The notes under the pieces: generated by a model
The model's input: only the letters and a program-made list of their open reading frames with translations
What the model was told of the DNA's origin: nothing
The model's database searches: none
Source of the DNA: Candidatus Hermodarchaeota archaeon
GTDB taxonomy: Archaea; Asgardarchaeota; Hermodarchaeia; Hermodarchaeales; Hermodarchaeaceae
Direction: 5' to 3'
NCBI GenBank assembly: GCA_016840065.1
Contig: JAEOTB010000054.1
Span: 1 to 64,000 of the forward strand
DNA length: 64,000 bases
Position numbers and translations under genes: made by a program
Shown here: piece after piece, positions 2,614 through 37,983 of the stretch
Layout of the letters: each line of letters begins with the position of its first letter
How positions within the stretch are numbered: the first letter of the stretch is position 1

Positions 2614-5600
2614 CTATCCTCCGAATGCTGCTCGGAGCGATTGGTAGACTGCATCTCTTTCTTCCTTTGACATGGCCTTGAGCCGTTCAATGAGATCCGC
2701 TTTCTCTTCTTCTTGGAGTCCGGGGATTTTGTCAAGTTCCTGACGAATTGCCACTTCCAGGCTTGGCACCTCAGGCTCAGGGGGCTCTATCGGTGGTTCT
2801 AGGGGTTCCACTTCTTCGATATCTATTGGCTCGGGGGGTTCTAAGGGCACATCGGTGTCTGGTTCTGTAGTGGGTGTTGGTTCAGTAGGTACTGGTTCTG
2901 CTGGCTCTAGTGGTGTAACAGGTTCTGCGGGTTCTATTGGTGTTTCGACTTCAGGTTCTAGTGGTGTGATCGGCTCAGAGGGCTCAACCGGCACGGATGG
3001 TTCAACAGGCTCTGGTATAGGCTCTGGCTCATCAGGTTCAACGAATTCTGTAGATTCAGTTACTTCCGGCTCTGTTTCAGGTTCATCCTCAGGCTCAGGT
3101 TGCTCCTCCACAACTTCAGGCTCAGGTTCAGGCTCTTCATCCTCAATTGGTGGAGGTGGCTCGTCTGGTATCGACGGTTCCTCGATTGGCTCAGTTGGTT
3201 CAACTGGCTCAGGTTGCTGTTCAGGTTCTGATGGAGTATCTGTGCGGCGTGTGAGGGGATCCATCCTACGCTCGCTCATCTGGCGGCGCAAATCGTCGAG
3301 GAACCATACCCTGTCTGTCCGGGGTATCTTCATCATTTGTCTTGCCAGTTCAGATCTTTCAGCTGGGCTAAGACCAGAAATCGCTTCAAGTTGGACCAGG
3401 ATGTCTTCTTCAGAGTCACTTACTTCCTCGATGGTTGTTGTGACTGGAACAATGGCGGGTTGTACGGGGATGTCTATCTGGTCGAAGGCTTGGCGAACGC
3501 TCTTGCTCATGATTGCGTCGCGTGTACGGATTCTGTCACGGTCCTTACTGCTAAGCTCAAAGGAGCCTTCTCGGCCAACCTTCCGGGCAAGCCTTCGTAG
3601 GCGGCGAACTTCAGGTGGAACTGAGAGCATCCTCGTCCAGAGTAGCCAGAATAGGACGATGATTATGAGGATGACAGCGAGAGCGATTCCGCCGTTTATC
3701 ATCATGTTCATTAGTGGATTGTGTTCGAAGAAGAAGCCCACTTGGAGTTCAGAAGAGCTATAATCTTGCTTCACTGCTGTGAATGTCACCATACCCTGAC
3801 TTGGTGCAGGTCCAAAGACGGATACGATATAGTAGCCTGGACGTCCCGTGTCTTCTACAACTGAAACAGATGTGGAAGACAGACTACCAGAGAAGCTTAT
3901 TTCTATGGTTGCGTTTGTGACGCCGCAGATGTGGTAAGTATCGTTTAGGTAAAATTCGAAACTATAACTCTGACCGACGTAGAACATGTTGTCCGCTGGA
4001 AACAGTCCTAACGACTCGGCTGTCCAGTCTAGTAACACTGGAATGGGTGTAACTGAGAGGCTGCGTGAAAACTCTGCCTGCTGATGGTAGTCAAGGTCGA
4101 AGGTGAATTGGATTTCTGCGTCTTCATAGAAAGTCAATGGGAATTCAACGCGCCAGTATCCTGTCAAGCTGTCGAAGGAGAAGTCTTCATGAGCGGTGGA
4201 ATACTGTGAGGCTCCAAGAGCACCCATAACATCGGTGAGTGTAACATTCGAGTAATCGGCGAACCAGACCACGACGACAAGAGTGTCATGGATTGGAGCG
4301 TCCCAGCTGCTAAGAGTATAATCGATACTCACATTGTATAGGACTCCATCAATCTCTCGAAGTGTGTAGGCACCGATTATTTCATACTGGGTTTCACGAG
4401 GAGTAACAGTCAAGGATATGATTTCCTCATCATAGGCGTACCTTTGTTGGGTTTCATGAGTGATTACGAGCTGGTAGGTCTTGGGGATGTCGGAGGTCAC
4501 AAGCACTGTCGTGTAGTACCCAAGTGTTCCATTGGAGGTGAGGGAGCCTGAATGGGTTCCCCAAGTAAAGGCTAGCGTGCTACCGTCAATGCCTAGAGAT
4601 GTTTGAGAGTCTCCCAGGAATACGGTTAACTCGACTGAATCACCATACTGGCTGGTAATGGTCGATGATTCTACGGTAATTTCACAAGGTTTGTAATCAA
4701 GGGTAATTACAAAGAGGGTTGTCTGAAGCTCATAGTTGGTCGCATAGGCATAGATTAGAATCTGGTAGGGTCGGGCAGCCCACTCGGATTCAGAGGTGTT
4801 TAACCAGCACTCATAGTAGCCACTAGTAGCGTTTAGTAACAGAGTTTCTATTGGAAGTGATCCGTTGTATGCAGTTAGGGTAGCACCAGTAATTGTGCTT
4901 CCTCCTGAAACATTGTAGATCACCCGTAGCTGAATCATGGTGTCAAGGTAGGTGGTTATTGTTGATGTATCACCAGCTGGTATGTCGATTACTGTGCTAA
5001 CAGGATGAATTGTGAGGGTGTAGGTGAGAAGTGGTGTGGTGTAGTTGCTACCCATCGTCACCTGGACCGCGATTACGTAGGTCTGTGCATTCACATCGCT
5101 TGTGTTCAGTAAGACATAGTAGAAGCCGCCACTCAGCTCAACAAGCCAATCTGATGGTAGGCTCGCCCAGGTGAAGTTCACCTGCCCACTAGTTATCGGG
5201 AGACCTGTGTGATTACTTGAAAGGTAGACTGTGATATTGAATTGGTCAAGGTAGTAGCATTCTGAGGTAAGACCTGATGGATCGACACGGTCAATTTGGA
5301 GTATGTGGGGCCTTATCTGTAGGTCGATTCGGCGCTCTTGGCTAAGATAGTTAGACTTGTTAGCCATCAATGTGATGCTCCATTCCATCGCGGAGAGAAG
5401 AGAGGTGTCAATGGTGATGTTCCAGCTACCGTCGAGGTTCAGAGTTGCAGTGAAGGAGAGGGCTGGATCCAAGGACCAGAGACCTGAATCAGTCTGGTTG
5501 ACCCCAGTATAGAGGTCATAGTACCAGGCAGTGATGTTCAGCTTCATGCCATAGTAGACGATTTCATGTTGTACCCAGTCGAGTAAGGTAGTAACTTCTG

Positions 5601-8600
5601 TGATGCGAGCTGAAACCTGGTGAGTGGCTGAAGAGTAGTAAGGTGGTACTGGCGGCGAGGAAGGCCAGGTCATATTGATTTGGAATACATAGGTGCCTAC
5701 ATCCAGATCCATGTAGCCGTGAATGGTGACCACATAGACTCCGCTCAGGTGAGAGGAGTTGTCCAGTGACCAGAAGGTGGAATTGAACCCCGGTATATCA
5801 GCACAGCCTATCTCGAAACCGACCAAGAGGGAGGAGTTGTCAATGGGGTTGCCCCCGTCAGTCTCAAAGTGAAGTGTGATATTGATGTCAGACTGGTAAG
5901 AAACCGCACTTGGTGCATCAGAATAGAGAACCGTCGCTGTCCCTGTGACGCGGCAGGAGAAGACACTGGTTGCGTTTGCATAGAATGGAGCGTTTCCACC
6001 GACCCACGATACGTTGACCTGGAAGTCGAGGAATTCATAGATAGCTCCAAGCTGACTTGCATTAATGCGAATCTGGAACTCGTAAGTAGGATTAGTGGTT
6101 GCGTTCTCCACTACATATTCGGTCAGTAGTTCTGCACCAGTTGTGGCATTGCATACAATTATGCTGACATAGCCGCCCCTGGTGATGTTATCGTTGTTCC
6201 AACCACTAATCGAATCCCTGTAGTTAAGGTACACCACGATGTCATCGGCATATCCTGTATCAGTTGGGTAGGTTTGGACAACCGTGGTGGGGCGCTCCTC
6301 TGAAATCAAGTAGGCTTCAACCCACTGCTCCTCGTAATTGGGAGTAGCGGCATCCCACTCAGCGGAGATGTTGACCCACCACCTACCAGGGTAGGGTGTG
6401 AGGCTAGAGTTGAGAGTGATTTCATAGACGCCGTTGCCCAGATGGTTCACCGAGTAGTTACTGGGTGTCAGCGTCCAGCCAAGGCTGCCGTTCGTTGTGA
6501 CATATATGTGGTCCACGTTTGGAATACCATCCAGGTTCTGGGTGCTATCATCATCAAGAACCTTGTATATGACCTGGAAGACAAAGTTCTCCTCAAAGGC
6601 CACTTCATCAACTGGGGGACGCTCTAGCTCTGTGTAGACTGTTCGTACATGGAAAGTAATCTCAGAAATTGAGGCATTATCGTACTGGCTGCTGGGAGCG
6701 ATGGCATCAACCTGAATCTTGTAGCTGCCGATGTCCAGAGATGCATTGATAGTTATGAGATAGTAGGTGCCATAATCCGCCACTGTATAGTTGACATCGA
6801 GGACAAGGACAAGACCATCGAGTCCAGTTACATTCAAGGTGGCACTAGGAATGAAGTCTCCGTTGAACTGGCTTTCACCATCCAACACAAGGTAGTAGAG
6901 AGTGATATTCACATCGTCACCATAAGGCGTGCTGGAAACCTGGTTGTAAATCATGGTGGTAATCAGCGGACGAACCGTCATCACCAGACCCACAATCTGG
7001 CCATCCTCATAGTAGGCATGGGGGCTTGCCATGCTAATGGTGAAGGAGTGTTCGCCAACACTGCTCAACATCGTGGTAGTGAAGGTGATGGTATAGTTAC
7101 CGTCACCGTGATCGGTAACGAAGAAATCGGTTCCTAAGCTCCAGCCAGAAATCGATATTACTCCATTAGCGATGACTTGAGTGTCATTCGCGCTCACCGA
7201 ATCATCAACTTGGTACTGCACCACCAAGGTACCGTTCTCACCCCAAGGCACCGAGGAGGGTGGCGTGTAGAGGAAGGATATCGCGAGGGTGCGTATTGTA
7301 ACCTTGGTATTCACAACTCCGTCATTATACTCCAGGGTCGTTTCGATTGTAATCTGTACTGAGTGCTGTCCAAGGGACCAGGAGGAAGACTGGAGATAAA
7401 CCAGGTACTCGCCCTCAGATACATTGTACACGTAGGTGCCCCAGTGAGTCGTGTTATAGATTACACTGCTATAGCCTGAGCAGCTGATGGTAAGCTGGAC
7501 GACAGAACCGTTAAGGGCTTCACCCGTATCACTGTCGTTCACCCGGAGTGTAAACCAGGTATTGTTCTGATACGGAATGGAAGAAATCGGGTCAATGATA
7601 CCAACAATACTATGCTTACGGATGGTGACCGTAACCAAGCCCCAGCCAATATCAAAGAGGGTTAGATCATTGGGGAAGACAGTAACATTCAAGGTATGCA
7701 CAGTTAGCGTCCAGCCCTCCGCAGAGAGAAGGAAGGAAACCGAATAGTTAATCGCTGGCAGATTGGGATAGGAGGCTTCACTACCCGTAGTGTTGATGTA
7801 GTTAAGGTAGAGCGAAGCATTGATGACACCACCAACATCAGCGTCCTCCCACGAAACAGTAATGTTCACAGTCCCATCAGCTGGAACTGGGCTAGGAGGC
7901 GTGACTACCACGTTCACACGGTGCCCACGGATGACAACCGTCACACTACCACTAGCATCGCTGTAGTTGCGCGGGCCAGTGGTCGCATAAACACTAATGC
8001 TAAGGCTGTAGCCAGCATTCACCGACCAACCATCAGTATCCAAAGAGAAGGAGAAGACCCCAGTAAAGACCTGATCGCCGCCAACTGGACACCCAGAGAC
8101 AGTCACGTTAACCAAGTTGCTCGCGTCTAGGATACTGCCAGTGTCAAGGTCCAGCCACAAAAGCACTATTGACGTATTCTGACCCCACGGAGTAGGTTCA
8201 GGAGTCTGAATAGAAACCGACGTATAATGCAGACGAATCACAACAGTAACCGTCGAGCTGCTATTCTGATAGAAACCCAAGCTAGCATTCGCAACCACCA
8301 TGATGGTCAAGCTGTAGGAGCCCACCGACCACGAATCAGTGTCAAGCGTGAAACTCAGACTAGCAAAGGACTGATCACCGCCCACTGGACAGTTCGAGAC
8401 AATCACCAAGGAAAGGTTGCCACTCGGCACATCTGAGCTACCCAAGTCCAGGTCCAACCAGTCAACGGACATGCTGGTATTGAAGTCAAAGGGAGTCTGC
8501 TCGGGCGGCGAAGCGACGGTTTGAGTCTGGTGAGCCCGGATGGTCACAGTCACCGAGCCCGTTCCCGTATCATAGGAGGAGTTCCCATAGACCGTTACTG

Positions 8601-11600
8601 TCAAATCAAACGAGCCGACACTCCAATTAGCGGTCTCCAAGGAGAAGCTCAAGCTACCCGTGAACACTTGGTTCCCCCCTGTCGGACAGTCAGAGATAGT
8701 AATGTTAACCAAAGCCGAGACTGGGATGGCTTCACCAGTGTCGATGTCAATCCAGTACACCACTAAGCTGGTATTTACACCCCAAGCAGTCTGGGATGGA
8801 GGATCAAGAGTGACACTGACATAGTGTACCCGGATAGTGATGGTAACTGTATAGCTGTCGATGTCATAGAGTTGTGGTGACATGTCTGGGAAGACCGTGA
8901 CAACAACCTGGTACGCCCCAACGCTCCAAGCCTCAGTATCCAGGGTGAAGCTGAGGACGCCAGCAAAGGTCTGATTACCCCCAACAGGACAGTTCGAGAC
9001 GGTCACGTTATCAACATTGAGGGCAGCGATAGTAGTGCCTGTATCAAGGTCGTTCCAGGTAACTGTTATCGATGTGTTCTGACCTCGACCTGTCGCTGGA
9101 GGAGTGGCTGCTACTACCTCAACGCGGTGGACGCGAATCACCACAGTGACACTACCGCTGGCATCGGTGTAGTTCCGAGGGCCAGTCAGAGCATACACAT
9201 CCACGGTCAGAGTGTAGCCAGCACTAATGGACCAAGAATCAGTATCAAGAACTGGAGACAAGGTGCCAGAGAATGACTGATCGCCCCCAACAGGACAACC
9301 AGAGATCGTCACATTGTCAAGGCTAGAGGTACCAAGAATCGCACCAGTATCCAAGTCCATCCAGGTAATTACTAGTGTAGTGTTAAAGCCCCACGGAGTC
9401 GAATCAGGGGTCTGAACAACAATCGCAGTGTAATGTACCCGAATCACAACAGTGACTGTAGAGCTGCTGTTCTGGTAAAAGCCCAAGGTACCGTTGGCAT
9501 AGATGGTCACTGTTAGCAGGTATGTTCCCACGGTCCAATTATCCGTGATTAAAGTGAAGCTTAGACTGTTGAAGGACTGGTCGCCACCAGTTGGGCAACT
9601 CGACACTACGACCAAGGATAGGTTACCGCTGGGCACATCACTGCTACCCGAATCCAGATCCGTCCACTGAATAGAAAGGCTGGTATTAAAGTCGAAGGGA
9701 GTCTGCTCAGGTGGCGAGGTAATGGTTTGGGTCTGGTGGGCCCGGATAGTCACTGTGACAGAACCCGAACCAGTGTCATAGGAGGAGTTCCCGTAGACAG
9801 TAACTGTAAGGCCAAAGGAGCCCACACTCCAGTTCTGTGTAAAGAGTGCAAAGCTCAAGCTACCAGTAAAGGTCTGGTTACCGCCCGTTGGGCAACCAGA
9901 GATAGTAATATTATCAAGGGCCGAGACAGGGATAGCCTCACCAGTGTCCACATCAACCCAGTAAACAACGAGACTCGTGTTTGAGCCCCATGGTGTCTGG
10001 GCTGGAGGATCAAGGGTGACGCTCGTATAATGAACTCGTATTGTGACTGTTACTGTGTAGCTGTCAATGTCATAAAGCTGGGGTGACATGTCAGGGAAGA
10101 CTGTCACAACGACTTGGTAGTCTCCCACACTCCATGCTTCGGTATCCAGGGTGAAGCTAAGGACACCAGCGAAAGTCTGATTACCCCCGACCGGGCAATT
10201 CGAAACCGTCGCATTATCCACATTAACACTTGCGATAGTGGTGCCTGTGTCTAAGTCATTCCAGGTCACAGTGATGGAGGTGTTTTGGCCCCGACCTGTA
10301 GGTGAGGGTGTAGCAACGATTACCTCAGTCCGGTGGATTCGTATTACCACAGTAAGACTACCGCTTGAATCATCATAGTATCGAGGACCAGTAGTGGCAT
10401 AGGCCGTCACGGTTAAGCTGTAGCCTACGCTGATAGACCAGGAGTCAGTATCTAAGGTCGGTGTGAAGGACCCGGTGAAGGTCTGATCGCCGCCTACAGG
10501 GCAACCTGAAACAGTGATGTTCTGAAGATTACTGGTGTCCAAGATGGTGCTGGTGTCGAGGTCAATCCACTGAATGCTAAGCGATGTATTGAAGCCCCAT
10601 GGAGTCGGGTTAGGTGTCTGAACGACAACCGCAGTAAAGTGAATCCTGATAATCACAGTGACTGTACTGCTACTATTCAGGTAGAATCCAAGACTGGCAC
10701 TGGCATTAACCGAAACCGTCAGAACATATGTACCAGTTACCCAGCTATCCGTGTCCAAATCGAAGCTGAGACTGGAGAATGATTGATCACCACCAACAGG
10801 ACAACCTGAGACAACAACAGAGCTCAGGTTCCCACCAGGAACATCAGAGCTACCCAGGTCCAAATCCAACCAGTCAACCGACATGCTAGTATTGAAGTCA
10901 AAGGGAGTCTGCTGCGGCGGTGAAACAACTGTCTGGGTTTGGTGGGCACGGATAGTCACTGTGACGGTGCCGCTGTCGTCACTGTATGAGGTGTTGCCAT
11001 AGACCCAGACTGTGAGGGAGTATCCGCCGACACCCCAATCCTCCGTGTCAAGCTCGAAGCTCAGACTACTAGTAAATACCTGGTCGCCGCCCACTGGGCA
11101 TCCGGTGACGGTGATGTTGTCCAGGGCGTCAACCGGGATAGAGGTGCTTGTGTCGGTGTCTACCCAATTGACCTCCAAGCTAGTATTGGTGCCCCACGGG
11201 CTCTGGTCTGGAGGATTAACTGTTGCGCTCACGTAATGATTACGGATAGTGATTGTAACCTGATAGGAGTCAACCTCGTACAACTGAGGTGACATGACAG
11301 GATAGATAGTCACCGTGACGAGATGGCTACCCACACCCCAATCATCAGTGACCAGGATGAAGGAGAGGCTACCAGTGAAGGACTGATTACCACCCACTGG
11401 GCAATCCGACACGGTAACATTGTCCAAGTTGACGACATTGATTGTGGTGCCCGTGTCAAGATCATTCCAGGTCAACGTGACAGAGGTATTTAGACCCCAA
11501 CCAGTCGGAGCAGGAGTAGAAACGATGACCTCAACCCGGTGAATCTCGATGACAACAGTCACGCTACCCGAAGCATCACTGTAATTTCTAGGACCAGTCG

Positions 11601-17600: not shown

Positions 17601-20600
17601 TGGCATCACTATAGTTGCGTGGACCAGTGGTCGCATAGATGGTCACACTGAGCGAGTAACCTGCGCTGATGGACCAAGAGTCCGTGTCCAAGGTCGGAGC
17701 GAAGGTGCCAGTGAAAGTTTGGTTACCACCCACCGGACATCCTGACACTGTTATATTACTCAGGTTACTGGTGTCAAGAATAGCTCCTGTATCGAGATCT
17801 GTCCAGATGATAGTGAGCGAGGTGTTTTCACTCCAAGGCGTGGGTTCGGGGGATTGAACCACTACGGTTGTGTAGTGGATTCTGATGATGACGGTTACGC
17901 TACTGCTGCTATTCTGATAGAAGCCAAGGGCAGCACTAGCGTTGATGGTGATTGTTAGTGTGTAAGATCCTACGGACCAGCTGTCAGTGTCGAGGGTGAA
18001 GCTTAAGCTACTGAAAGTTTGGTCGCCGCCCACTGGGCAATTAGACACAACCACGGCGGAGAGGTTGCCGCTAGGCACATCACTGCTACCTAAATCGATG
18101 TCCACCCACTGCACAGTTATGGAGGTGTTGAAATCGAAGGGGGTCTGCTCAGGGGGTGAGGTTATTGTCTGGGTTTGGTGGGCGCGGATGGTTATGGTGA
18201 CGGTGCCGTCTCCAGTGTCGTAGGAGGTGTTGCCGTATACGTAGACGGTGAGGCTGTAGGAGTTGACGCCCCAGTCCTCTGTATCGAGGGTGAAGGTGAG
18301 GGAACCGGTGAATACCTGGTCTCCTCCTACGGGACAGTTGGTGACGGTGATGTTGATGAGGGCGGAGACACTGATGTCGCTATCAGTGTCGATGTCTCGC
18401 CAATTGACGGTGAGGCTCGTGTTTGTGCCCCATGGATTTTGGGCTGGTGGGTCAACGGTAACTGTGACATAGTGGGCGCGGATGGTTATGGTGAGGTTGT
18501 AGCTGTCGATGTCGTAGAGTTGGGGTGCCATGTCTGGGTAGGCGGTGACGGTGATGAGGTGGGCTCCGACATTCCAGTCGTCACAGACCAAGGTGAAGAT
18601 GAAGCTGCCTGTGAAGGTCTGGTTGCCGCCAACGGGAGTGTTGGAAACGGTGATATTGTCGAGGTTGCTGACATCGATGGTTGTTCCTAGGTCTAGGTCA
18701 TTCCAGGTCACGGTCAGGGAGGTGTTGAGACCCCAGGCAATGGGTGCGGGGGTGTTGACTATGACTTCGACTCGGTGGAGCCGTACCACCACAGTGACTG
18801 ACCCACTCGCGTCAGCATAGTTACCTGAAGCGGTATAGACGGTCACAGTGAGCGAGTAACCGGTGCTGATGGACCAGGAGTCCGTGTCCAAAGTGGGCGA
18901 GAAAGTACCAGTGAAGGTTTGGTCGCCACCGACCGGGCAATCAGAGACCGTGATATTATCAAGCTGGCTGGTGCTCAATATTTGGCCCGTATCGAGATCT
19001 GTCCAGATGACAGTAAGGGTGGTGTTCAACCCATAAGGTGTGGAGTTGGGTGGCTGAACTGTTACAGCGGTGTAGTGGATTCGTATGATGACGGTTAAGC
19101 TACTGCTACTGTTCAGGTAGTAGCCGAAGGCTCCGTTTGCATAAACGGAAACAGTTAGGACATAGGTTCCAACCGTCCAAGAGTCGGTATCTAGAGTGAA
19201 GCTAAGGGAATAGAAGGTTTGGTCGCCACCGACCGGACAATTGGATACGACGATGGAGGAGAGGTTACCGCTGGGCACATCACTGCTACCCAAGTCTAGA
19301 TCCACCCAATCAACTGAGATTGAGGTGTTGAAGTCGAATGGAGTCTGTTCAGGGGGTGATACTACAGTTTGGGTTTGGTGTTCTCTTATGGTTATGATGA
19401 CAGGTCCGTTGGTCGCGTAGTAACTGGAGTTGCCGTAGACATAGATTGTGAGACTAAAACTCCCTACGCTCCAGGCTTCAGTGTCAAGGATGAAGGTGAA
19501 ACTGCCAGTGAAGGTTTGGTCACCGCCCACCGGGCATCCAGTGACGGTGATATTATCGAGGGCGGTGAGGTCGATGGCAGTGGAGGTGTCAGAGTCCTGC
19601 CAGTTGATGGTCACAGAGGTGTTGGTACCCCATGGGCTTTGAGCGGGTGGGTCGGCTGTGACGCTGGCGTAGTGGGCGCGGATAGTGACGGTTACTTGAT
19701 AGCTACCGATTTGGTAGTTGTTTGTGTTGGAGTAGACGGTTGCGTTGACGAGGTGGTCGCCCACACTCCAGGTATCTGTTTTGAGGGTGAAGGGGCCAAT
19801 GGTGGAGGAGCTTTGGTCGCCGCCCACCGGGCAGTTGCTGATGGTTACATTGTCTAGTTCGGTGTCTGTGAGAGTGGTTCCGTTGTCCAGATCTGTCCAG
19901 GTGACGGTGAGGCTTGCGTTGAGTCCCCAGGCTGTTGGGTTGGGTGTTTGGATTGAGACGCTTACTCGGTGGGCTCGGATGGTGACTTGGACGGTGGCGT
20001 TGTCGTCTTCGTAGAGGCGGGGTGAGGTGAGGGCATATACCTGGACTGTGAGGGTTTCGGTGGCCAAGTTCCAGGTGCTTGTGTCGAGCCAGAAGGTAAG
20101 GCTGTTGGCTGTTGTTACCAAGCTGCCGTTAGCGAATAGTACGGTGACGTTCAGGAGGTCCGAGTCAGTGAGGAGGGATCCATCTTCGAGGTCCGTCCAT
20201 TGGACGACTAGCTGGGTTTGCCATCCCCAGGGCGTTTCATCTGGGGGTTCGACAAAGACGGCTGTCTGGTGGGTGCGGATCGTTATTCTTAGGTTGCCCT
20301 GGCTGTAAACATAGAGGCTAGTGTTGGAGTAGACATAGGCGGTCAGGTTGTAGGTGTTCGTCGTCCAGTCATCAGTGTCGAGGATGAAGGTGAGGCTGGT
20401 GTGGTTGGAGATTGCGGTACCATTCTGGAAGCGGACATCCACACGATCTAGGACACTAGCTGTGAGGTCAGTATTTGTGTCAAGATCTGTCCAGGTGACG
20501 GTAACGGTGACGTTGTTGCCGATGCCTACGGGGTCGGGCTGGTCTACTATTGTTTGTGTGAGGTGCGCCCTTATGTCGAAGGTAAGGCTCCGGCTGGCAC

Positions 20601-23600
20601 TGGTGTAGTCAGTACTAGTGGGTGTGACCGTTATGTCTAGCTCATAGAGGGCGACCTCGGTGAGTACTGAGGCGTTAATCGTGATAAGGTATTCTCCGCC
20701 CCCTAGGGAGGTCCAGGTGAAGTTGATGTTTAGGACCAGTGGCGTCCCATTTAGTTCACAGGTTATGGTTGTGACTGCTGGGAAGGTTCCGTGTTCGCTA
20801 CTGGCGGAGTCATCAACAAAGTAGTTGATGGTGACGCTCATGTCGGTGCCCCAGGGTTCGGGGTTGGGGGCGTCGTAGAAGACTACGGTGTTAATCTGCC
20901 GGAGCGTTAAGATCACATCTACTGTGCGGTTAGCGTAGAAGGGGTTGTTTGCTCCAGCGGCATCATACCAGGTGAAGTTAACAGTAAAGGTGTATTGACC
21001 TGCTCCTGGGAGGGTGGAGGTGTCGATGGTGATGTTCCATATTCCAGCGGCAAATTCAGTTATGGTCGCGTCGGTCCAGAGGGCTCCTGAATACCAGAGG
21101 GTGAGGTTGACGTTGGGGGAGCTGGGGAGATTTGCTCCACCTTCATCCAGGTCGGTTATGGTGACTGTGAGGTTAGCTTGCTCGTTGAGTGGGAGGGTGG
21201 AGGGAGTGGTTGAGGAGAGTTGGGTGTTTCTGGCCCGTACGCTGACATAAGCAGTCACGGTCCTGTTGGCAAAGAAGGGGTCATTGGCTGAGCCGTTGAG
21301 GTACCAGTAGAAGCGGATTTCAAAGGTGTGGGTGCCAAGCCCCTCAAGATAGCTGGTGTTTAAACTGATTTCGTACACTCCTATTGAGCCGCTATAGGTG
21401 ATGGTAGCATACCCGAGGGTATCCCATCGGTGGGTGCTGTTCCAGACTTGGAGGTGGATGTGCCCGGTACTGTTACTTACGGGGTTGCTGCTGTTATCAA
21501 GGTCTGTAAGGGTGATGTCGAATACCGAGTCATTCCCGAAGGGAACGGTGAGGATGGCCCCGGTAGAGAGTTGAGTGTTTCGTGCTTGTACCAAGATGGT
21601 TAGGGTGAGGGTTTGGGTCTGGTAGCTTGTTCTTTGGGCTGTGACGGTCATGTAGTAGGTTCCAGGTTCGCTGACTTCGCCCGAGTCTATAGTGAAGTTG
21701 TACCATCCGCTGCCCTGCGCGGTGGGATTGACGGCGTTGGTCCAGTTTGAGGTGACTGTGGCGCTTTCGATTCCCGTCTCATCCACTTCTCGTCTATAGG
21801 CGAAGTTGACATTGGTTGTCTCCCCATAGGGAATCGAGAATCCTGGAGTGGAGGGAGATGTCAGGGTTGTCTCCTCGACCACACTGACGGTTATCAGGCA
21901 GTAGGCATCAGCATGGTACTGTTTTGTGGCGTTCACTCGGAGAGTATAGTTTCCTGCATTCTGGGCAGTAGAGTCGAGTTCTACGACATAGAAACCGCCG
22001 ACTAGCTCGAAGGTGTCAGAGCCCGTCCAATTACCCACAACGGTTGCACCCTCAAGGAAGGTGTCCGTGGGAGAGGTATCATTACTATAGAAACGGACTC
22101 GCGGGTAGAAATAGCTGCCCGTCTGACGAATCACCTCAATCGTACTATATTGGGGAATAAGGGTGGTTGTCCCGTGGGTAACTGTTATAATGGTGGAGTT
22201 AAAGCCAGCCGCAGTCATGGATTGTGTGTCGCCATTATCATAGCTTACGCAGAGAGTGTATTCGCCTGCAGCGAATTCGGTTCCATTGTCAAAACTTACC
22301 GCGGAGAAGGAGGCGGCGCCTGCGACGACTGATTGTGTGTCCTCAGCGACAATGGTACCTGAGGGATCATAAAGAGTGAGGTTTGCTTCACCAGTGGTCT
22401 TGCCGAAGGTTGCGCTAACAGAAAGGCTGTTCGGCGTATTAGGTGCAATTTGGAAGGTATCAAAATTAAGGGTGACCGTATCGACTCGATTTGGTGAGGT
22501 TAGGGTAAAGTTCCACCAGCCGTAGGCATCGTTGATGGTGGAGTGGGTCATGCGGATGTGAGTACTGTTGCTGTCAGTGGTTACAGGGCTTGTACGGTTA
22601 TTGAAGAGCGCGTCGATGACCGTATCTATTGTCCATGTCTCAGTGGTGGGCAGAGCGATAGTGAGGTTATAATCGTCAAAGTAGAAAGGTTGGTACGCAT
22701 AGTACCATGTGTTCCAGTATACACTGGTTTCGTTCTGAGCCGAGAAGGTTGTACCCTCTGGCCCTGTCTGCTGCTCGGTGGTGGAATCCTTTGTTATGTA
22801 AAGAGTGAGATTGTAATCAAAGTAGACGCCGCTGCTGTTGCTGGAGTAGGTCTCCCAGAGGGCTTGCACCGTTGAATGGCTAGCACCCGGGTTTGCCCAG
22901 GTTCCGGTGAGGGTGATGGTGCCGGTTCCATAACCGGTGCTGGTCACAGCGGTGCTGTTCAGGCGGAGGTCAACCCAGGCATGGTCTGGTTGTGCCTTTC
23001 CTGTTATCTCCAGTGTGACATCATCGAAGTCTAGAGCCCATTCCTCAGCTGCCGGGGCGTCGACGTCCGCGGTGAAGCTGAGTCCCAGCCGGACTGTGAG
23101 AAGTGGCAGGCTCCATGTGAGAATGTCATCATAAGGAATACTCACATTGACCTGATACCATTGCCCATCGTTCGGAGCTGTTGATGCTAGGAGTCTTGGG
23201 TAAACTATCCCTTCAACTTCGACATAGATGACTAGGTTACCTCGGCAGTCTGGTTGACCCACAGAGATTTGGTTTACTTGGACATAGAATGTCAGCTTTG
23301 CATATGATACGTCGGTTCGGGGAATGCTTATGTTGTTGAACCAGGCAGCATAGGAGTCGTCATTCATGTCATAGTTATTGCTCCAGGCGGCTTGAACGCG
23401 AACACCATTTGTACTAGACCGACCATAGGAAGTTCCATACGAACCAGAATGGGAGTTAGGGCTTGCGACCCAGTAGCTGGTGTAGTTCCATTCGGTGGGG
23501 TCTGATCCGCTGCTGGCTTCAAAGTCGCCGTTCTCGCGGGTTCCATTTATCCAGTAGAGTTTGTCGTGGAGGTTATCGACATTGCCTATTAGCTCGTAGC

Positions 23601-23943
23601 CAGTCCATCCCGCGGGTAGGCGTATCTCTCCGTATCGGTCGTCGCCATAGTCCATTGGATTTGATTCGGGAACCTCCAGCGATTGGTTTGTTCCCACAGC
23701 ATACTCGGTCGTGTTCAGTACGGTTCCAAGCCCGTCGTACTGGTATTCTCCATCAACCAAGGTGGGTCCAGCAGGTGGTAAGGGGGTAGATATACCCAAG
23801 AGGGAGGAAGGCACCTCAGAGCTAGACCCAGCAGAATCTGGTATCCCCGCCATGTTGATTAATGGAAATGCGGGTGCTATGAGGGAGGAGGACAGAATGA
23901 AGAGTGAAAAGAGAAGAAGTAACGCTTGTTTCCTGAATCTCAT
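2614..23943 (-). CDS. Giant (7109 aa) single-pass cell-surface protein: signal peptide, N-terminal NGDFE CBM-like region, long Ig-like tandem array, TM helix, about 340-aa cytoplasmic tail
   Basis: Uninterrupted 21,330-nt ORF. N-terminus MRFRKQ plus hydrophobic stretch; Thr/Ser/Val-rich ~100-aa beta repeats with many NxS/T sequons; TM segment GGIALAVILIIIVLFWLLW (~aa 6750-6770) followed by basic RRLRRLARK; Pro/Glu-rich tail. Confidence 0.92.
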   Translation of the reverse strand: MRFRKQALLLLFSLFILSSSLIAPAFPLINMAGIPDSAGSSSEVPSSLLGISTPLPPAGPTLVDGEYQYDGLGTVLNTTEYAVGTNQSLEVPESNPMDYGDDRYGEIRLPAGWTGYELIGNVDNLHDKLYWINGTRENGDFEASSGSDPTEWNYTSYWVASPNSHSGSYGTSYGRSSTNGVRVQAAWSNNYDMNDDSYAAWFNNISIPRTDVSYAKLTFYVQVNQISVGQPDCRGNLVIYVEVEGIVYPRLLASTAPNDGQWYQVNVSIPYDDILTWSLPLLTVRLGLSFTADVDAPAAEEWALDFDDVTLEITGKAQPDHAWVDLRLNSTAVTSTGYGTGTITLTGTWANPGASHSTVQALWETYSSNSSGVYFDYNLTLYITKDSTTEQQTGPEGTTFSAQNETSVYWNTWYYAYQPFYFDDYNLTIALPTTETWTIDTVIDALFNNRTSPVTTDSNSTHIRMTHSTINDAYGWWNFTLTSPNRVDTVTLNFDTFQIAPNTPNSLSVSATFGKTTGEANLTLYDPSGTIVAEDTQSVVAGAASFSAVSFDNGTEFAAGEYTLCVSYDNGDTQSMTAAGFNSTIITVTHGTTTLIPQYSTIEVIRQTGSYFYPRVRFYSNDTSPTDTFLEGATVVGNWTGSDTFELVGGFYVVELDSTAQNAGNYTLRVNATKQYHADAYCLITVSVVEETTLTSPSTPGFSIPYGETTNVNFAYRREVDETGIESATVTSNWTNAVNPTAQGSGWYNFTIDSGEVSEPGTYYMTVTAQRTSYQTQTLTLTILVQARNTQLSTGAILTVPFGNDSVFDITLTDLDNSSNPVSNSTGHIHLQVWNSTHRWDTLGYATITYSGSIGVYEISLNTSYLEGLGTHTFEIRFYWYLNGSANDPFFANRTVTAYVSVRARNTQLSSTTPSTLPLNEQANLTVTITDLDEGGANLPSSPNVNLTLWYSGALWTDATITEFAAGIWNITIDTSTLPGAGQYTFTVNFTWYDAAGANNPFYANRTVDVILTLRQINTVVFYDAPNPEPWGTDMSVTINYFVDDSASSEHGTFPAVTTITCELNGTPLVLNINFTWTSLGGGEYLITINASVLTEVALYELDITVTPTSTDYTSASRSLTFDIRAHLTQTIVDQPDPVGIGNNVTVTVTWTDLDTNTDLTASVLDRVDVRFQNGTAISNHTSLTFILDTDDWTTNTYNLTAYVYSNTSLYVYSQGNLRITIRTHQTAVFVEPPDETPWGWQTQLVVQWTDLEDGSLLTDSDLLNVTVLFANGSLVTTANSLTFWLDTSTWNLATETLTVQVYALTSPRLYEDDNATVQVTIRAHRVSVSIQTPNPTAWGLNASLTVTWTDLDNGTTLTDTELDNVTISNCPVGGDQSSSTIGPFTLKTDTWSVGDHLVNATVYSNTNNYQIGSYQVTVTIRAHYASVTADPPAQSPWGTNTSVTINWQDSDTSTAIDLTALDNITVTGCPVGGDQTFTGSFTFILDTEAWSVGSFSLTIYVYGNSSYYATNGPVIITIREHQTQTVVSPPEQTPFDFNTSISVDWVDLDLGSSDVPSGNLSSIVVSNCPVGGDQTFYSLSFTLDTDSWTVGTYVLTVSVYANGAFGYYLNSSSSLTVIIRIHYTAVTVQPPNSTPYGLNTTLTVIWTDLDTGQILSTSQLDNITVSDCPVGGDQTFTGTFSPTLDTDSWSISTGYSLTVTVYTASGNYADASGSVTVVVRLHRVEVIVNTPAPIAWGLNTSLTVTWNDLDLGTTIDVSNLDNITVSNTPVGGNQTFTGSFIFTLVCDDWNVGAHLITVTAYPDMAPQLYDIDSYNLTITIRAHYVTVTVDPPAQNPWGTNTSLTVNWRDIDTDSDISVSALINITVTNCPVGGDQVFTGSLTFTLDTEDWGVNSYSLTVYVYGNTSYDTGDGTVTITIRAHQTQTITSPPEQTPFDFNTSITVQWVDIDLGSSDVPSGNLSAVVVSNCPVGGDQTFSSLSFTLDTDSWSVGSYTLTITINASAALGFYQNSSSSVTVIIRIHYTTVVVQSPEPTPWSENTSLTIIWTDLDTGAILDTSNLSNITVSGCPVGGNQTFTGTFAPTLDTDSWSISAGYSLSVTIYATTGPRNYSDATGSVTVVIRIHQAEAIASTPAPTAFDLNTSITVTWNDLDTGTSINVSNLDNITVSNCPVGGNQTFTGSLSFTLKTDDWSVGSYQITITVYPDMSPQQYETDIYTVTITIRAHYVSVTINPPAQTAWGENTTLVVNWEDVDTSTTISVSALDNITVTGCPVGGDQTFTGSLTIILDTEGWGVDGHTLTVYVYGNTSYDTGSGSVTVTIRSHQTQTIVSPPEQTPFDFNTSITVQWVDLDLGSVDVASGNLSSVVISNCPVGGDQTFTSLSFTLDTDSWTTGSYTLTVTVYANVSLGFYQNSSASVTVTIRLHYTAVVAQSPEHTPWGENTSLILVWTDLDTGAILDTSNLQNITITNCPVGGDQVFTGTFTFTLDTDSWSISAGYTLTVNLYATTGPRNYNDPTTSVTVVVRTHRTEIIVTTPAPTGWGLNTSSTLVWNDLDTGSTIAVVNLDNITVSNCPVGGDQVFTGSYTFTLVTDNWGVGSHQVSVTLYPDMAPQLYDIDSYTVTITIRNHYTSVVVDPPQQSAWGTNTSLTVTYTDTDTSTTISVDALINITVTGCPVGGDQVFTGTFSFILDTEDWGVADHVLTVYVYGNDSYADGSGLVTVTIRSHQTQAIVSPPEQTPFDFNTSISVRWVDLDLGSSDVPSGNLSSIVVSNCPVGGDQTFASLSFILDTDSWTTGSYTLTVTIYANVSLGFYQNSSSSVTVTIRLHYTAVVAQSPEQTPWGFNTSLTLVWTDLDTGAILDTSNLANITITNCPVGGDQVFTGTFTFTLDTDSWSISAGYSLTVNLYAMTGPRNYNDPTTTVTVVIRVHRTEIIVTTPEPTGWGLNTSVTLVWNDLDTGSIIAVVNLDNITVSNCPVGGDQTFTGSFTFTLVTDYWGVGAHPVNITLYPDMAPQQYDIDSYTVTVTIRNHYTSVVVNPPQQSAWGTNTSLTVTYTDTDTSTTISVDALINITVTGCPVGGDQVFTGSYSFTLDTEDWSVVDHVLTVYVYGNDSYADGSGSVTVTIRAHQTQTIVSPPEQTPFDFNTSITVQWVDLDLGSIDVASGNLSSIVVSNCPVGGDQTFGGLSFILDTDSWTTSSYTLTVTVYANASLGFYQNSSSSVTITIRIHYTSVVVQSPEQTPWGENTSLTLVWTDLDTGAILDTSNLENITISNCPLGGDQVFTGAFTFVLDTDSWSISTGYSLTVDLFATTGPQNYSDASSTVTVIIRIHNTEIIVTTPEPTGWGLNTSIILVWNDLDTGSTVTIANMDNITVSNCPVGGDQTFMGSFTFTLVTDDWGVGSHQVNVTLYPDMSPQLYDWDSYTVTVTIRNHYSSVVVDPPQQSAWGTNTSLSVTYTDTDTSTTISVDALINITVTGCPVGGDQVFTGSFTFTVDTEDWGVAGHVLTVYVYSNVSYADGSGLVTVTIRSHQTQTIVSPPEQTPFDFNTSLTVQWVDLDLGSADVASGNLSSVVVSNCPLGGDQTFASLSFTLDTDSWITGSYTLTVTIYANTSLGFYQNSSASVTVTIRLHYTAVVAQSPEQTPWGENTSLTLVWTDLDTGSILDTSNLENITITNCPIGGDQVFTGAFTFVLDTDGWSISAGYTLTVNLYATTGPRNYSDPITTVTVVIRVHRTEIIVTTPEPTGWGLNTSITLTWNDLDTISTIAVVNLDNITVSDCPVGGDQTFTGSFTFTLVTDDWGVGSHQVTVTLYPDMSPQQYNGDSYTLTVTIRNHYSSVVVDPPQQSAWGTNTSLTVTYTDTDTSTTISVDALDNITVTGCPVGGDQVFTGSYSFTLDTKDWGVAGYVLTVYVYSNVSYADGSGLVTVTIRSHQTQGIISPPEQTPFDFNASITVQWVDLDLGSSDVASGNLSSVVVSSCPVGGDQAFASLSFTLDTDSWTVGSYTLTVTIYANASLGFYQNGSASVTVTIRLHYAAVVVQSPEPTPWGFNTSLTIIWTDLDTGQILDTSNLANITVSGCPVGGDQTFTGTFTPVLDTDGWSISAGYTLTVTAYATTGPRNYSDASGSVTVVIEIHRVEVIVSTPAPTGWGLNTSVTLTWNDLDTGTTINVVNLDNVTVSDCPVGGNQSFTGSLSFILVTDDWGVGSHLVTVTIYPVMSPQLYEVDSYQVTITIRNHYVSATVNPPDQSPWGTNTSLEVNWVDTDTSTSIPVDALDNITVTGCPVGGDQVFTSSLSFELDTEDWGVGGYSLTVWVYGNTSYSDDSGTVTVTIRAHQTQTVVSPPQQTPFDFNTSMSVDWLDLDLGSSDVPGGNLSSVVVSGCPVGGDQSFSSLSFDLDTDSWVTGTYVLTVSVNASASLGFYLNSSSTVTVIIRIHFTAVVVQTPNPTPWGFNTSLSIQWIDLDTSTILDTSNLQNITVSGCPVGGDQTFTGSFTPTLDTDSWSISVGYSLTVTAYATTGPRYYDDSSGSLTVVIRIHRTEVIVATPSPTGRGQNTSITVTWNDLDTGTTIASVNVDNATVSNCPVGGNQTFAGVLSFTLDTEAWSVGDYQVVVTVFPDMSPQLYDIDSYTVTVTIRVHYTSVTLDPPAQTPWGSNTSLVVYWVDVDTGEAIPVSALDNITISGCPTGGNQTFTGSLSFALFTQNWSVGSFGLTVTVYGNSSYDTGSGSVTVTIRAHQTQTITSPPEQTPFDFNTSLSIQWTDLDSGSSDVPSGNLSLVVVSSCPTGGDQSFNSLSFTLITDNWTVGTYLLTVTIYANGTLGFYQNSSSTVTVVIRVHYTAIVVQTPDSTPWGFNTTLVITWMDLDTGAILGTSSLDNVTISGCPVGGDQSFSGTLSPVLDTDSWSISAGYTLTVDVYALTGPRNYTDASGSVTVVIRVHRVEVVAATPPATGRGQNTSITVTWNDLDTGTTIAALNVDNVTVSNCPVGGNQTFAGVLSFTLDTEAWSVGAYQVVVTVFPDMSPQLYDIDSYTVTITIRVHYVSVTLDPPSQTAWGVNTSLVVYWIDIDTGEAIPVSALVNITISDCPTGGNQVFTGSLSFSLETANWSVGSFDLTVTVYGNSSYDTGTGSVTVTIRAHQTQTVASPPEQTPFDFNTSMSVDWLDLDLGSSDVPSGNLSLVIVSNCPVGGDQSFASLSFTLDTDSWSVGSYSLTIMVVANASLGFYQNSSSTVTVVIRLHYTSVSIQTPEPTPWGQNTSIVLLWLDLDTGSILDASNLVNVTVSGCPVGGDQVFTGVFSFSLDTDGWSVNAGYSLSISVYATTGPRNYSDASGSVTVVIRGHRVNVVVTPPSPVPADGTVNITVSWEDADVGGVINASLYLNYINTTGSEASYPNLPAINYSVSFLLSAEGWTLTVHTLNVTVFPNDLTLFDIGWGLVTVTIRKHSIVGIIDPISSIPYQNNTWFTLRVNDSDTGEALNGSVVQLTISCSGYSSVIYNTTHWGTYVYNVSEGEYLVYLQSSSWSLGQHSVQITIETTLEYNDGVVNTKVTIRTLAISFLYTPPSSVPWGENGTLVVQYQVDDSVSANDTQVIANGVISISGWSLGTDFFVTDHGDGNYTITFTTTMLSSVGEHSFTISMASPHAYYEDGQIVGLVMTVRPLITTMIYNQVSSTPYGDDVNITLYYLVLDGESQFNGDFIPSATLNVTGLDGLVLVLDVNYTVADYGTYYLITINASLDIGSYKIQVDAIAPSSQYDNASISEITFHVRTVYTELERPPVDEVAFEENFVFQVIYKVLDDDSTQNLDGIPNVDHIYVTTNGSLGWTLTPSNYSVNHLGNGVYEITLNSSLTPYPGRWWVNISAEWDAATPNYEEQWVEAYLISEERPTTVVQTYPTDTGYADDIVVYLNYRDSISGWNNDNITRGGYVSIIVCNATTGAELLTEYVVENATTNPTYEFQIRINASQLGAIYEFLDFQVNVSWVGGNAPFYANATSVFSCRVTGTATVLYSDAPSAVSYQSDINITLHFETDGGNPIDNSSLLVGFEIGCADIPGFNSTFWSLDNSSHLSGVYVVTIHGYMDLDVGTYVFQINMTWPSSPPVPPYYSSATHQVSARITEVTTLLDWVQHEIVYYGMKLNITAWYYDLYTGVNQTDSGLWSLDPALSFTATLNLDGSWNITIDTSLLSAMEWSITLMANKSNYLSQERRIDLQIRPHILQIDRVDPSGLTSECYYLDQFNITVYLSSNHTGLPITSGQVNFTWASLPSDWLVELSGGFYYVLLNTSDVNAQTYVIAVQVTMGSNYTTPLLTYTLTIHPVSTVIDIPAGDTSTITTYLDTMIQLRVIYNVSGGSTITGATLTAYNGSLPIETLLLNATSGYYECWLNTSESEWAARPYQILIYAYATNYELQTTLFVITLDYKPCEITVESSTITSQYGDSVELTVFLGDSQTSLGIDGSTLAFTWGTHSGSLTSNGTLGYYTTVLVTSDIPKTYQLVITHETQQRYAYDEEIISLTVTPRETQYEIIGAYTLREIDGVLYNVSIDYTLSSWDAPIHDTLVVVVWFADYSNVTLTDVMGALGASQYSTAHEDFSFDSLTGYWRVEFPLTFYEDAEIQFTFDLDYHQQAEFSRSLSVTPIPVLLDWTAESLGLFPADNMFYVGQSYSFEFYLNDTYHICGVTNATIEISFSGSLSSTSVSVVEDTGRPGYYIVSVFGPAPSQGMVTFTAVKQDYSSSELQVGFFFEHNPLMNMMINGGIALAVILIIIVLFWLLWTRMLSVPPEVRRLRRLARKVGREGSFELSSKDRDRIRTRDAIMSKSVRQAFDQIDIPVQPAIVPVTTTIEEVSDSEEDILVQLEAISGLSPAERSELARQMMKIPRTDRVWFLDDLRRQMSERRMDPLTRRTDTPSEPEQQPEPVEPTEPIEEPSIPDEPPPPIEDEEPEPEPEVVEEQPEPEDEPETEPEVTESTEFVEPDEPEPIPEPVEPSVPVEPSEPITPLEPEVETPIEPAEPVTPLEPAEPVPTEPTPTTEPDTDVPLEPPEPIDIEEVEPLEPPIEPPEPEVPSLEVAIRQELDKIPGLQEEEKADLIERLKAMSKEERDAVYQSLRAAFGG
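2765..3235 (-). repeat. Low-complexity Pro/Glu-rich coding region (PEPE/EPVEP-type degenerate repeats) in the cytoplasmic tail of the giant protein
   Basis: Translation EPEQQPEPVEPTEPIEEPSIPDEPPPPIEDEEPEPEPE...EPPEPEVP; repeated ggttc/ggctc units on the + strand. Confidence 0.9.
7930..19977 (-). repeat. Intragenic tandem super-repeat: 10 x four-domain unit, period 1206 nt (402 aa), 40 domains in total
   Basis: The TPFDFN marker occurs at + strand positions 19327, 18127, 16921, 15715, 14509, 13303, 12097, 10891, 9685 and 8479 (spacing 1200, then eight times exactly 1206). Four domain types (WGLN, WGTN, PFDFN, WGEN/WGFN) recur in fixed order. Confidence 0.95.
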
Positions 23944-26425: not shown

Positions 26426-26527
26426 TTCGACCAACATCCGATAATGTTTCAAAGATTATTAAGCCTAGCGCCAGTACAATAACAGGTATCACCTTTTTGA
26501 AGATAACTATAGGAGATTGTATAGGCA

Positions 26528-37051: not shown

Positions 37052-37338
37052 GTTTACTTCCGAGTTCTTGTTTGTATTGAGATATTTATAGGAGATGATA
37101 GTATTATATGAGAGAATATTGGAGATTCTTCTTCAAGATTACGTTTTTCGAAGGGTACAATGGTTTTGCGATTTCCTCAATTGATATGAGATATGTTTTA
37201 GGATTACTTAATGTTAATGATTCTTATTCAAAGAAAAATAATCCAAAAGCTATTTAAACCAGAAAGACTTAGCACTATTTGGGCAGGCAAGCGAGTCGCA
37301 TTTCGCGATTAACCCGCAATCCTTTAGATCTGGTGCAA

Positions 37339-37983
37339 ATGTTGGGAGAAAATCCACCTGAAAGAGAACCGGTAGAATCCTTGACAAACCAAGCCATGTC
37401 TGTAACTGAAGGAACGCCTATCTTCAAACTTGTTTTTGCGGGCGAAGGAGGAGTAGGTAAAACCTCTATTGTTAACCAATACCTTAGCGGAGAACACAAT
37501 GAGCCACCTATGACGGTGGGCTCAGAGTTCGCTTATCAAGAGGTGGAGTTGGAGAAACAGACAGTAGGTTTGAGTTTGTGGGATTTTGGTGGAGAAATTC
37601 AATTCCGAGACCTCATCCCGGTCTTTTGCATGGGTGCTCACGGTGCTGTGGTCGTTTTCGACTTGAGCCGTTACTCCACTTTTCGACAGATTATTGCCTG
37701 GCTAGACCTCATTAAGCAGACTGAAGACCACATACCAATAATCCTTGTTGGTTCTAAGAGCGATCTTGCGAGCGGGGGCCCCTCTGAGGAGGAAATTCAG
37801 GCGATTCGCGAGAAATATAAAATCAGAGAGTACATTACAGTCTCATCGTTAACTGGAGAGAATATCTCCAAACTGTTTTTACGGATTTCAGAGATACTCA
37901 TCGAGGCCGTTAAGGATGGGGAAATAACTCCTGCCAAGTCGGTCAAGGTACCTTGTCAGGGAAATGAATCCGTCTGCGATTAA
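37339..37983 (+). CDS. Rab-like small GTPase (Ras superfamily)
   Basis: G1 GEGGVGKTS, G2 MTVG, G3 WDFGGE, G4 GSKSD, G5 VSSL. Start uncertain (37279, 37339 or 37396). Confidence 0.88.
   Translation: MLGENPPEREPVESLTNQAMSVTEGTPIFKLVFAGEGGVGKTSIVNQYLSGEHNEPPMTVGSEFAYQEVELEKQTVGLSLWDFGGEIQFRDLIPVFCMGAHGAVVVFDLSRYSTFRQIIAWLDLIKQTEDHIPIILVGSKSDLASGGPSEEEIQAIREKYKIREYITVSSLTGENISKLFLRISEILIEAVKDGEITPAKSVKVPCQGNESVCD

Follow-up and report, generated by a model that had tools for sequence, protein, structure and literature searches.

What is a 7109-residue protein doing on the surface of an archaeon, and why should its domains be of four kinds that follow one another in a fixed order? These questions are raised by a gene in the first 64,000 nucleotides of contig JAEOTB010000054.1 (assembly GCA_016840065.1) from Candidatus Hermodarchaeota archaeon, a stretch to which we refer as the window. 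The gene lies at positions 2614..23943 on the minus strand and encodes a giant protein, P0001, which contains ten copies of a four-domain super-repeat. Our reading, to which we assign a probability of roughly 55%, is that P0001 is a fibrillar adhesin-like tether: a glycosylated, acidic and probably cation-stiffened rod with a lectin-like head at one end and a conserved tail at the other.

A single giant gene for a membrane-anchored protein

P0001 is specified by one uninterrupted open reading frame (ORF) of 7109 codons, which is by far the largest frame of its metagenome-assembled genome (MAG); the runner-up is 2805 amino acids (aa) in length. The choice of start codon is backed by an ortholog from the same genus that opens with an identical N-terminus, MRFRK followed by a hydrophobic stretch. 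The gene and the parts of its product, described with the help of hidden Markov models (HMMs), structure prediction with AlphaFold2, and searches for immunoglobulin-like (Ig-like) domains and carbohydrate-binding modules (CBMs), are as follows.

2614..23943, minus strand: whole gene for P0001, a predicted 7109-aa type-I membrane surface protein (single stop-free ORF)
23857..23943, minus strand: signal peptide, aa 1-29 (hydrophobic aa 6-29 behind MRFRK; kept in orthologs)
22993..23535, minus strand: distal head, a CBM-like beta jelly-roll, about aa 137-317 (AlphaFold2 and structural neighbours)
19969..22938, minus strand: irregular Ig-like domains before the array, aa 336-1325 (iterated domain HMM from aa 579; weak FlgD_ig and Shr-like Pfam matches)
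7921..19968, minus strand: array [ABCD]x10 of 40 Ig-like domains, aa 1326-5341 (HMMs, identity matrix and AlphaFold2)
3700..7920, minus strand: irregular Ig-like domains after the array, aa 5342-6748 (12 iterated-HMM domains, aa 5338-6744)
3637..3699, minus strand: transmembrane helix, aa 6749-6769 (the sole strongly hydrophobic window apart from the signal peptide)
2617..3636, minus strand: cytoplasmic tail, aa 6770-7109, 340 aa (motifs kept across genera)

An initial annotation, made from the letters of the sequence, had proposed a signal peptide, one transmembrane helix and a long cytoplasmic tail, and all three are present. The helix is followed directly by PEVRRLRRLARK, a basic stop-transfer segment of the positive-inside kind. 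That annotation had also described less regular domains of similar style on both sides of the array; indeed, an iterated HMM recognizes 59 related domains between aa 579 and aa 6744, and the ectodomain thus consists of about 60 sandwiches.

Could so long and repetitive a gene be a product of assembly or of gene calling, that is, a collapsed, chimeric or expanded repeat? The concern is a natural one for a source genome that is a MAG in 131 contigs, 84% complete and 5% contaminated. Against it, the frame stays open over 21.3 kb, and the ten units of the array are only 63-77% identical in pairwise nucleotide comparisons. Because they differ by 23-37% in DNA sequence and the longest exact word that any two have in common is 56 nucleotides (nt), short-read assemblers can resolve them. 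In addition, an independent MAG of the same genus (G002; Candidatus Hermodarchaeota archaeon YT_063, contig JAEOSX010000161.1) carries an ortholog that is colinear with P0001 over its first 2872 aa, up to the end of the contig, with identical unit boundaries, and independent assemblies from a second genus, g2, show the same cyclic order of domain types. An artefact of this kind is very improbable, and the array is almost certainly genuine.

Four domain types in an invariant order

The periodicity of the array was measured by autocorrelation of the protein sequence (Tandem Repeats Finder, whose longest period is 500 nt, reported no repeat). The protein is 72% identical to itself at a lag of 402 aa and 68% identical at a lag of 804 aa, as compared to about 22% at lags of 101, 199 and 301 aa. 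Within aa 1371-5285 the motif [CT]P[VLIT]GG[DN]Q is present in 40 copies, with a spacing that cycles through 101, 99, 100 and 102 aa. When the domains were split at a conserved R-x-H boundary and compared all against all in a 42x42 identity matrix, they fell into four types with identities of 60-92% within a type and 40-55% between types, and the order of the types was invariant. HMMs built for the individual types accordingly read P0001 as ??d[ABCD]x10.

The picture of 40 domains of about 100 aa that belong to four types, recur in fixed order and repeat with a period of 402 aa therefore holds for aa 1326-5341. One detail of the earlier description was slightly off: units 2 through 10 are each 402 aa (1206 nt) long, and the odd unit, which had been given as 1200 nt, is the first, at 398 aa (1194 nt). 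The repeat is without paralogs in the rest of the genome.

The types are old and are held distinct by selection

Orthologs from the second genus, P0002 (4498 aa; labelled Promethearchaeota archaeon) and P0003 (4489 aa), both have the type string CD[ABCD]x3AB, and a complete ortholog of 3299 aa from another genome (G004) has the string cdABCD. The closest database homolog of P0001 bears the label Promethearchaeota, in agreement with the Asgard origin given in the initial annotation. The number of super-repeats therefore differs among complete orthologs, being 1.5, 4 and 10. In a maximum-likelihood tree of 90 domains, four clades were recovered, one for each type, and each contained domains from P0001, P0002 and P0003. 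Thus the domains cluster by type and not by position, as had been anticipated, and the four types must predate the split of the two genera, since each clade includes domains of both. Within each clade the P0001 copies form a subclade of their own. From this branching pattern, the expansion to ten units is a duplication of entire four-domain blocks in the P0001 lineage.

The duplicates are not recent. The units have a synonymous divergence (dS) of about 2-3 from one another, which is near saturation, with an identity at four-fold sites of 0.37-0.42 as compared to a random expectation of 0.27. Since these values equal or exceed the dS of 0.9-2.0 that separates the two species of the genus (G000 and G002), the unit duplicates are evidently old. 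The ratio of nonsynonymous to synonymous divergence (dN/dS) between units is 0.03-0.1, a value like that of a neighboring cytoplasmic gene.

Selection has also acted on what distinguishes one type from another. Among the four types, 11-13 alignment columns are fixed differently, and these lie mostly at the first residue of the linker, in the B-C loop and in the F-G loop. In genus g2 the type-distinguishing residues show the state of their own type in 325 of 495 cases (66%), the residue at linker position 1 (R, Y, Q and Y by type) is preserved in 43 of 45 domains, and a three-residue deletion in the F-G loop of type B is preserved in all 10 of 10. As judged from these sequence comparisons, the identity of the domain types is under selection, and the type-specific junction residues fit four distinct junction geometries.

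Conservation is unevenly spread along the protein. In comparison with P0002, the array is 58% identical, the domains that follow it are 43% identical, and the head, which is the fastest-evolving region, is 33% identical. The strict ABCD super-repeat in combination with the conserved tail was found in only one Asgard family among the genomes searched. More distant giant homologs, 29-32% identical, occur in Thor- and Loki-type Asgard archaea and are essentially composed of a single unit of about 100 aa that is repeated. In one of these, P0004 (6451 aa), the region from aa 1296 to aa 3594 has an identity of 0.62 at lag 400, as compared to 0.605 at lag 100 and 0.556 at lags 200 and 300, a signal in the protein sequence that hints that four-domain duplication units may recur in the superfamily.

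We also note that a second giant gene is present in genus g2 (locus L020, 1-8577, minus strand, in G006:C28). It encodes at least 2859 aa with 33% identical repeats and lies in tandem downstream of the ABCD ortholog; in the window that position is occupied by an aminotransferase gene.

Fold and composition of the stalk

Unit 3 (aa 2126-2527) was modelled with AlphaFold2 from a 28-row alignment. The result was four seven-strand beta-sandwiches, the fold that had been suspected, with a mean predicted local distance difference test (pLDDT) score of 94.1 and a predicted template-modelling score (pTM) of 0.68. In a Foldseek search of the PDB the best matches were stalk segments of giant bacterial adhesins, namely the GhpA grappling hook (9fls and 9flu) and the tetra-tandem repeats of repeats-in-toxin (RTX) adhesins (6xi1 and 6xi3). 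Complement macroglobulin (MG) domains, cadherin ectodomains and titin I65-70 came next, and sequence identity was 10-16% throughout. Global template-modelling scores to known rods were low (0.2-0.33) and are uninformative. Neighbors in the ESM-Atlas were archaeal "Ig-like domain repeat proteins" that carry Big_3_5.

By sequence the domain stands apart. It matches no Pfam family above the gathering threshold; the matches below threshold or over patches were to Big_3_2 (E 0.084), Ribophorin_II_2nd (20 bits) and GBD_Y3 (34 bits across 30 residues). A profile search of the PDB with the four-domain alignment returned nothing at E<=1. Thus, neither search recovered a characterized family with this arrangement, in keeping with the earlier suggestion of an undescribed system.

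Four motifs are universally conserved in the domains: the B-C loop has DxD, the C-C' loop CPxGGxQ, the E-F loop LxTxxW and the linker IRxH; DxD, LxTxxW and IRxH are invariant. Given the strand order of the AlphaFold2 model, these loops lie at both ends of the domain, and the motifs are thereby placed where one domain meets the next. In RTX adhesins and cadherins this is the position of Ca2+ binding (PMC7493085), and the motifs suggest that P0001 may likewise bind cations there. The HxDxxDxxQ ester motif and the complement-type CxEQ thioester motif are absent. At 4-5 nm per domain, the array would extend for about 160-200 nm and the entire ectodomain for 240-300 nm.

The composition of the protein is that of an acidic and probably glycosylated stalk. 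N-x-S/T sequons number 230 in the ectodomain, a density of 3.23 per 100 aa; with a genome median of 0.3 and a 95th percentile of 1.55, this represents an approximately tenfold enrichment. There are about 3.3 sequons per array domain, and one NTS sequon is invariant across all 40 domains. On the basis of these sequons the stalk is probably heavily N-glycosylated. Lysine accounts for 0.39% of the residues of P0001 as compared to a genome median of 5.2%, with 3 lysines in the 4016 aa of the array, and the net charge of the array is -301. Low lysine content and high sequon density are likewise seen in other large secreted-looking proteins of the MAG. Because of the charge and the sequons, tight lateral packing of stalks is disfavored, unless cations bridge the chains.

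Each array domain has one conserved cysteine, and this residue, the linker histidine and DxD recur at regular spacing. Some orthologous domains do without the cysteine motif. A single domain of P0001 (aa 1769-1787; window 18583-18639, minus strand) lacks the cysteine of CPVGG, and in it a cysteine 18 residues further on takes the place of a conserved threonine. We considered this swap as a conserved compensation and rejected it: the G002 domain reads TPVGGNQ and LITDLW and has no cysteine.

Head and tail

The head, at about aa 137-317, is predicted to form a beta jelly-roll (AlphaFold2 pLDDT 80-90), and its structural neighbors, as found with VIA-align, are nearly all carbohydrate-binding modules, with Z scores from 11.5 down to 9. 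Among 1.84 billion representative sequences the head has 16 relatives, every one of them N-terminal in a long protein. The region from aa 30 to aa 335 has no Pfam match even at E<=5, PF13385 (Laminin_G_3) included; the distant homologs P0004, P0009 and P0011 do carry PF13385. The modelled fold suggests that the head is lectin-like and that its ligand would be a glycan.

The cytoplasmic tail comprises a conserved juxtamembrane segment, two helical motifs of the form ELDKIPGL..EEK..L, the motif VWFLDDLRRQM and a variable proline-rich spacer. The motifs are 49-55% identical across genera, and such conservation implies a connection with the inside of the cell. The spacer is acidic and Pro/Glu-rich (PEVK-like) in the genus of P0001, and basic and Pro/Lys-rich in genus g2. 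By eye the helical motifs resemble a helix-hairpin-helix (L..IPGL....K..L); no Pfam helix-hairpin-helix family matched at E<=5, and we retain the resemblance as a lead only.

A model for P0001 and its alternatives

We propose the following model. P0001 would be exported by virtue of its signal peptide and anchored in the membrane by its single C-terminal helix. Some 60 tandem Ig-like sandwiches would project outward from the cell for an estimated 200-300 nm as an acidic, N-glycosylated stalk, which cations bound at the junctions would probably stiffen, and the CBM-like jelly-roll near the tip would probably bind a glycan on a partner cell, on a matrix or on a particle. On the other side of the membrane, the 340-aa tail probably docks a cytosolic partner. 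As for its history, an A-B-C-D module that was already differentiated would have been duplicated as blocks after the genera split, and purifying selection would then have held the types distinct, chiefly in the linker and in the two loops, B-C and F-G, facing the adjacent domain. Because selection keeps the types distinct at sites that face the junctions, each of the four junction types probably has a geometry of its own. A role as a surface stalk or tether had been suggested for this protein in the initial annotation, and we regard it as the most plausible function.

Several considerations weigh against the tether model. The surface role of P0001 is predicted from the gene sequence and modelled structures. 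The jelly-roll of the head is a generic fold, and the first 110 residues of the head model are poorly modelled; cation binding is proposed from the junction motifs. Of the 19 MAGs of the order, which are 72-91% complete, 5 yielded an ABCD ortholog. Finally, the stalk is better conserved between genera than the head and better than a simple spacer needs, and a partner-binding or assembly role for the stalk itself is therefore possible.

How much meaning, then, does the order of the domains carry? It could be historical and protective only: blocks were duplicated, selection favored dissimilar neighbors, which would guard against misfolding between domains, and dissimilar DNA repeats, which would guard against loss by recombination, and the stalk serves as a passive spacer or as part of a glycocalyx or canopy, and not as an adhesin. 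The arrangement is well suited to such an account, in that neighboring domains are no more than 40-55% identical, same-type copies are always three domains apart, and the DNA identity of the units is low; an argument from dissimilar neighbors was made earlier for the mixed modules of Acinetobacter BAP (PMC4647330). The weak lag-400 signal of P0004 is consistent with a habit of four-domain duplication in the superfamily, and the low-lysine, high-sequon signature is one that P0001 has in common with other large secreted proteins of the MAG. What leads us beyond a passive spacer is that same-type copies have remained 60-92% identical even though their synonymous sites are nearly randomized, which amounts to an excess of constraint. 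Moreover, the type-specific junction residues and the indel of type B have been kept across genera, and a conserved tail together with a distinct head would be unexpected in a canopy protein. We consider the purely historical account rather unlikely.

At the other extreme, the order of the types could itself be the function, as in titin or nebulin: a period of four domains, or about 16 nm, would fit a partner of matching periodicity, or it would drive the protein to assemble with itself in a lateral or helical manner. The long retention of type identity across genera at a dN/dS of 0.03-0.1, nine consecutive units of 402 aa that are almost free of indels, a stalk that is more conserved than its head, and the regular recurrence of the cysteine, the linker histidine and DxD all speak for a register. 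The copy number of the super-repeat, however, differs more than six-fold among complete orthologs, which is unlike a ruler and weakens the molecular-ruler analogy that had been drawn for this array. In addition, the charge of -301 and the density of sequons oppose tight packing, no gene for a periodic partner was identified and the repeat lacks a paralog elsewhere in the genome, and the cysteine motif can be dispensed with in some orthologous domains. Duplication of a diverged four-domain segment as a block is a simpler account of the order that fits equally well and needs no structural pitch. We therefore regard a register of this sort as improbable. More speculative still is an elaboration in which P0001 would be the arm of an Asgard adhesion-receptor system: a helical register of about 16 nm, Cys/His/Asp sites that bind metal or a periodic partner, fibers that bridge cells or protrusions, and a tail coupled to a longin/coiled-coil protein. 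If true, this system would be a prokaryotic analogue of the cadherin- or integrin-type links between surface and interior.

Relation to known systems

As in fibrillar adhesins, the stalk of P0001 is a series of tandem Ig-like sandwiches. Its best structural matches, the RTX adhesins (MpIBP and the Aeromonas and Marinobacter proteins of 6xi1/6xi3) and GhpA, present a distal ligand-binding domain on a long run of Ig-like domains of about 100 aa, as P0001 would do with its putative ligand-binding head, and they likewise have acidic loop motifs at the domain junctions (PMC7493085). The likeness does not extend to the sequence, which is 12-16% identical and returned nothing in the profile search of the PDB, and no segment of P0001 had a Pfam match to RTX, HemolysinCabind or type I secretion system (T1SS) features. 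Unlike RTX adhesins such as LapA and MpIBP, P0001 is anchored by way of a signal peptide and a C-terminal transmembrane helix with a tail, and in contrast to bacterial adhesin stalks it has an archaeal host and is composed of four differentiated types and not of near-identical copies.

Other comparisons bear on the mixture of types. The initial annotation stated that in most giant adhesins of prokaryotes one unit is repeated, and this is only partly true, an exception being Acinetobacter BAP, which mixes modules A-D; BAP and BLP1 have mixed Ig-like modules (A-D and P-S, respectively) in their stalks, as does P0001 (PMC4647330). The order of modules in BAP is irregular and varies among strains, whereas that of P0001 is fixed. 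In titin, with its 7- and 11-domain super-repeats in the A-band and its tandem Ig domains in the I-band, and in nebulin, domains in equivalent positions are far more alike than are neighbors, and the same is the case for P0001. P0001 and titin have the Ig-like fold in common, titin I65-70 being among the Foldseek matches, yet P0001 is predicted to be extracellular and glycosylated where titin is cytoskeletal, is not homologous to titin, has no Fn3 domains and varies in copy number between species.

The Mobiluncus TIE adhesin, with 7651 aa and 51 Ig-like domains, is comparable in size (PMC10619420). Its domains have the HxDxxDxxQ ester or a lysine-based isopeptide bond, in contrast to the array of P0001, with no ester motif and 3 lysines. 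Giant archaeal proteins with a Laminin_G_3 or ConA-like head have the same layout of a jelly-roll head on a long Ig-like stalk; they have been catalogued as functionally "not understood" (PMC11573180). The head of P0001 differs from theirs in having no Pfam match and 16 relatives, its fold being a jelly-roll of the ConA/CBM type. Many unrelated giant genes are distributed across Asgard archaea (PMC8813620, Extended Data Fig. 7). Finally, classical cadherins are likewise type-I proteins with ectodomains of tandem beta-sandwiches; their B-C loop contains DxD, and they have an LDTD-like motif and a cytoplasmic tail that is conserved. P0001 does have LxTDxW, but it has no Cadherin Pfam match and has IRxH in place of the DxNDN linker, and the two are not homologous by sequence.

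Genes adjacent to the giant gene

We compared the surroundings of the giant gene in G002, G004, G006 and G007, where three neighbors hold their arrangement beside it.

24326..26452, minus strand: P0013, a 708-aa predicted cytoplasmic protein with an N-terminus that weakly resembles longin and a long coiled coil (directly upstream and co-oriented)
26528..28000, plus strand: P0014, a 490-aa multipass membrane protein (divergent from P0013)
28871-30859, minus strand: M28-family peptidase, about 660 aa (no more than 5 kb from the giant gene, both in the window and in G006; also L024 26153-28126)

The N-terminal 130 aa of P0013 are highly conserved and match Pfam Longin weakly (E=0.012). Five genomes from two genera have P0013 upstream of the giant gene, at identities of 81% and about 42%, and it is associated with the giant protein by synteny only. 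At the locus of a distant homolog no longin protein adjoins the giant gene. A predicted complex of P0013 with the proximal tail scored 0.00, with the partner poorly folded, and speaks neither for nor against an association. P0014 has orthologs in the G006 and G007 loci (45-48% identity). It has no Pfam match; its language-model neighbors in the ESM-Atlas are GT-C glycosyltransferases of the GT87/PMT_2 type (0.97-0.98), and it may glycosylate the surface protein. An M28 peptidase gene was again found 5 kb from a distant giant homolog, P0006, on an unrelated contig. Since all of the compared genomes belong to one family, the shared gene order is a weak indication that these genes are linked in function.

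The surrounding genes include ones for a Ras-family GTPase and a histone deacetylase. The former (37279-37983, plus strand; Ras/Roc/Arf small GTPase, Pfam Ras E 8e-30) is a typical Asgard eukaryotic-signature gene and lies 13 kb from the giant gene. Two adjacent genes at 49084-51999 and 52103-54148 (both plus strand) encode NosD/right-handed beta-helix proteins of 971 and 681 aa, which are probably surface proteins. We also considered a mobile-element or aloposon context (PMC8813620) and rejected it: there is no tRNA gene in the window, the genes nearby have housekeeping functions or are typical of Asgard archaea, and their order is conserved.

Significance for Asgard cell surfaces

Giant Ig-like stalk proteins are already known in bacteria. 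P0001 stands out for a domain family without a Pfam model or a solved relative, for a four-type super-repeat that is unusually strict and ancient, and for its conserved tail; we found no paper on this protein family or on its super-repeat. Cultured Lokiarchaea have no ordered S-layer and instead display "complex surface proteins" of undetermined identity, some of which bridge protrusions, and such proteins are thought to mediate the contacts with partners that are invoked in models for the origin of eukaryotes (PMC9834061). The gene for P0001 is a concrete and well-resolved candidate for Asgard cell-surface structures of this kind. Moreover, because the fold of the ABCD unit is predicted with high confidence, the unit offers a tractable object for asking whether ordered heterotypic repeats set the geometry of a rod, prevent misfolding or template assembly.

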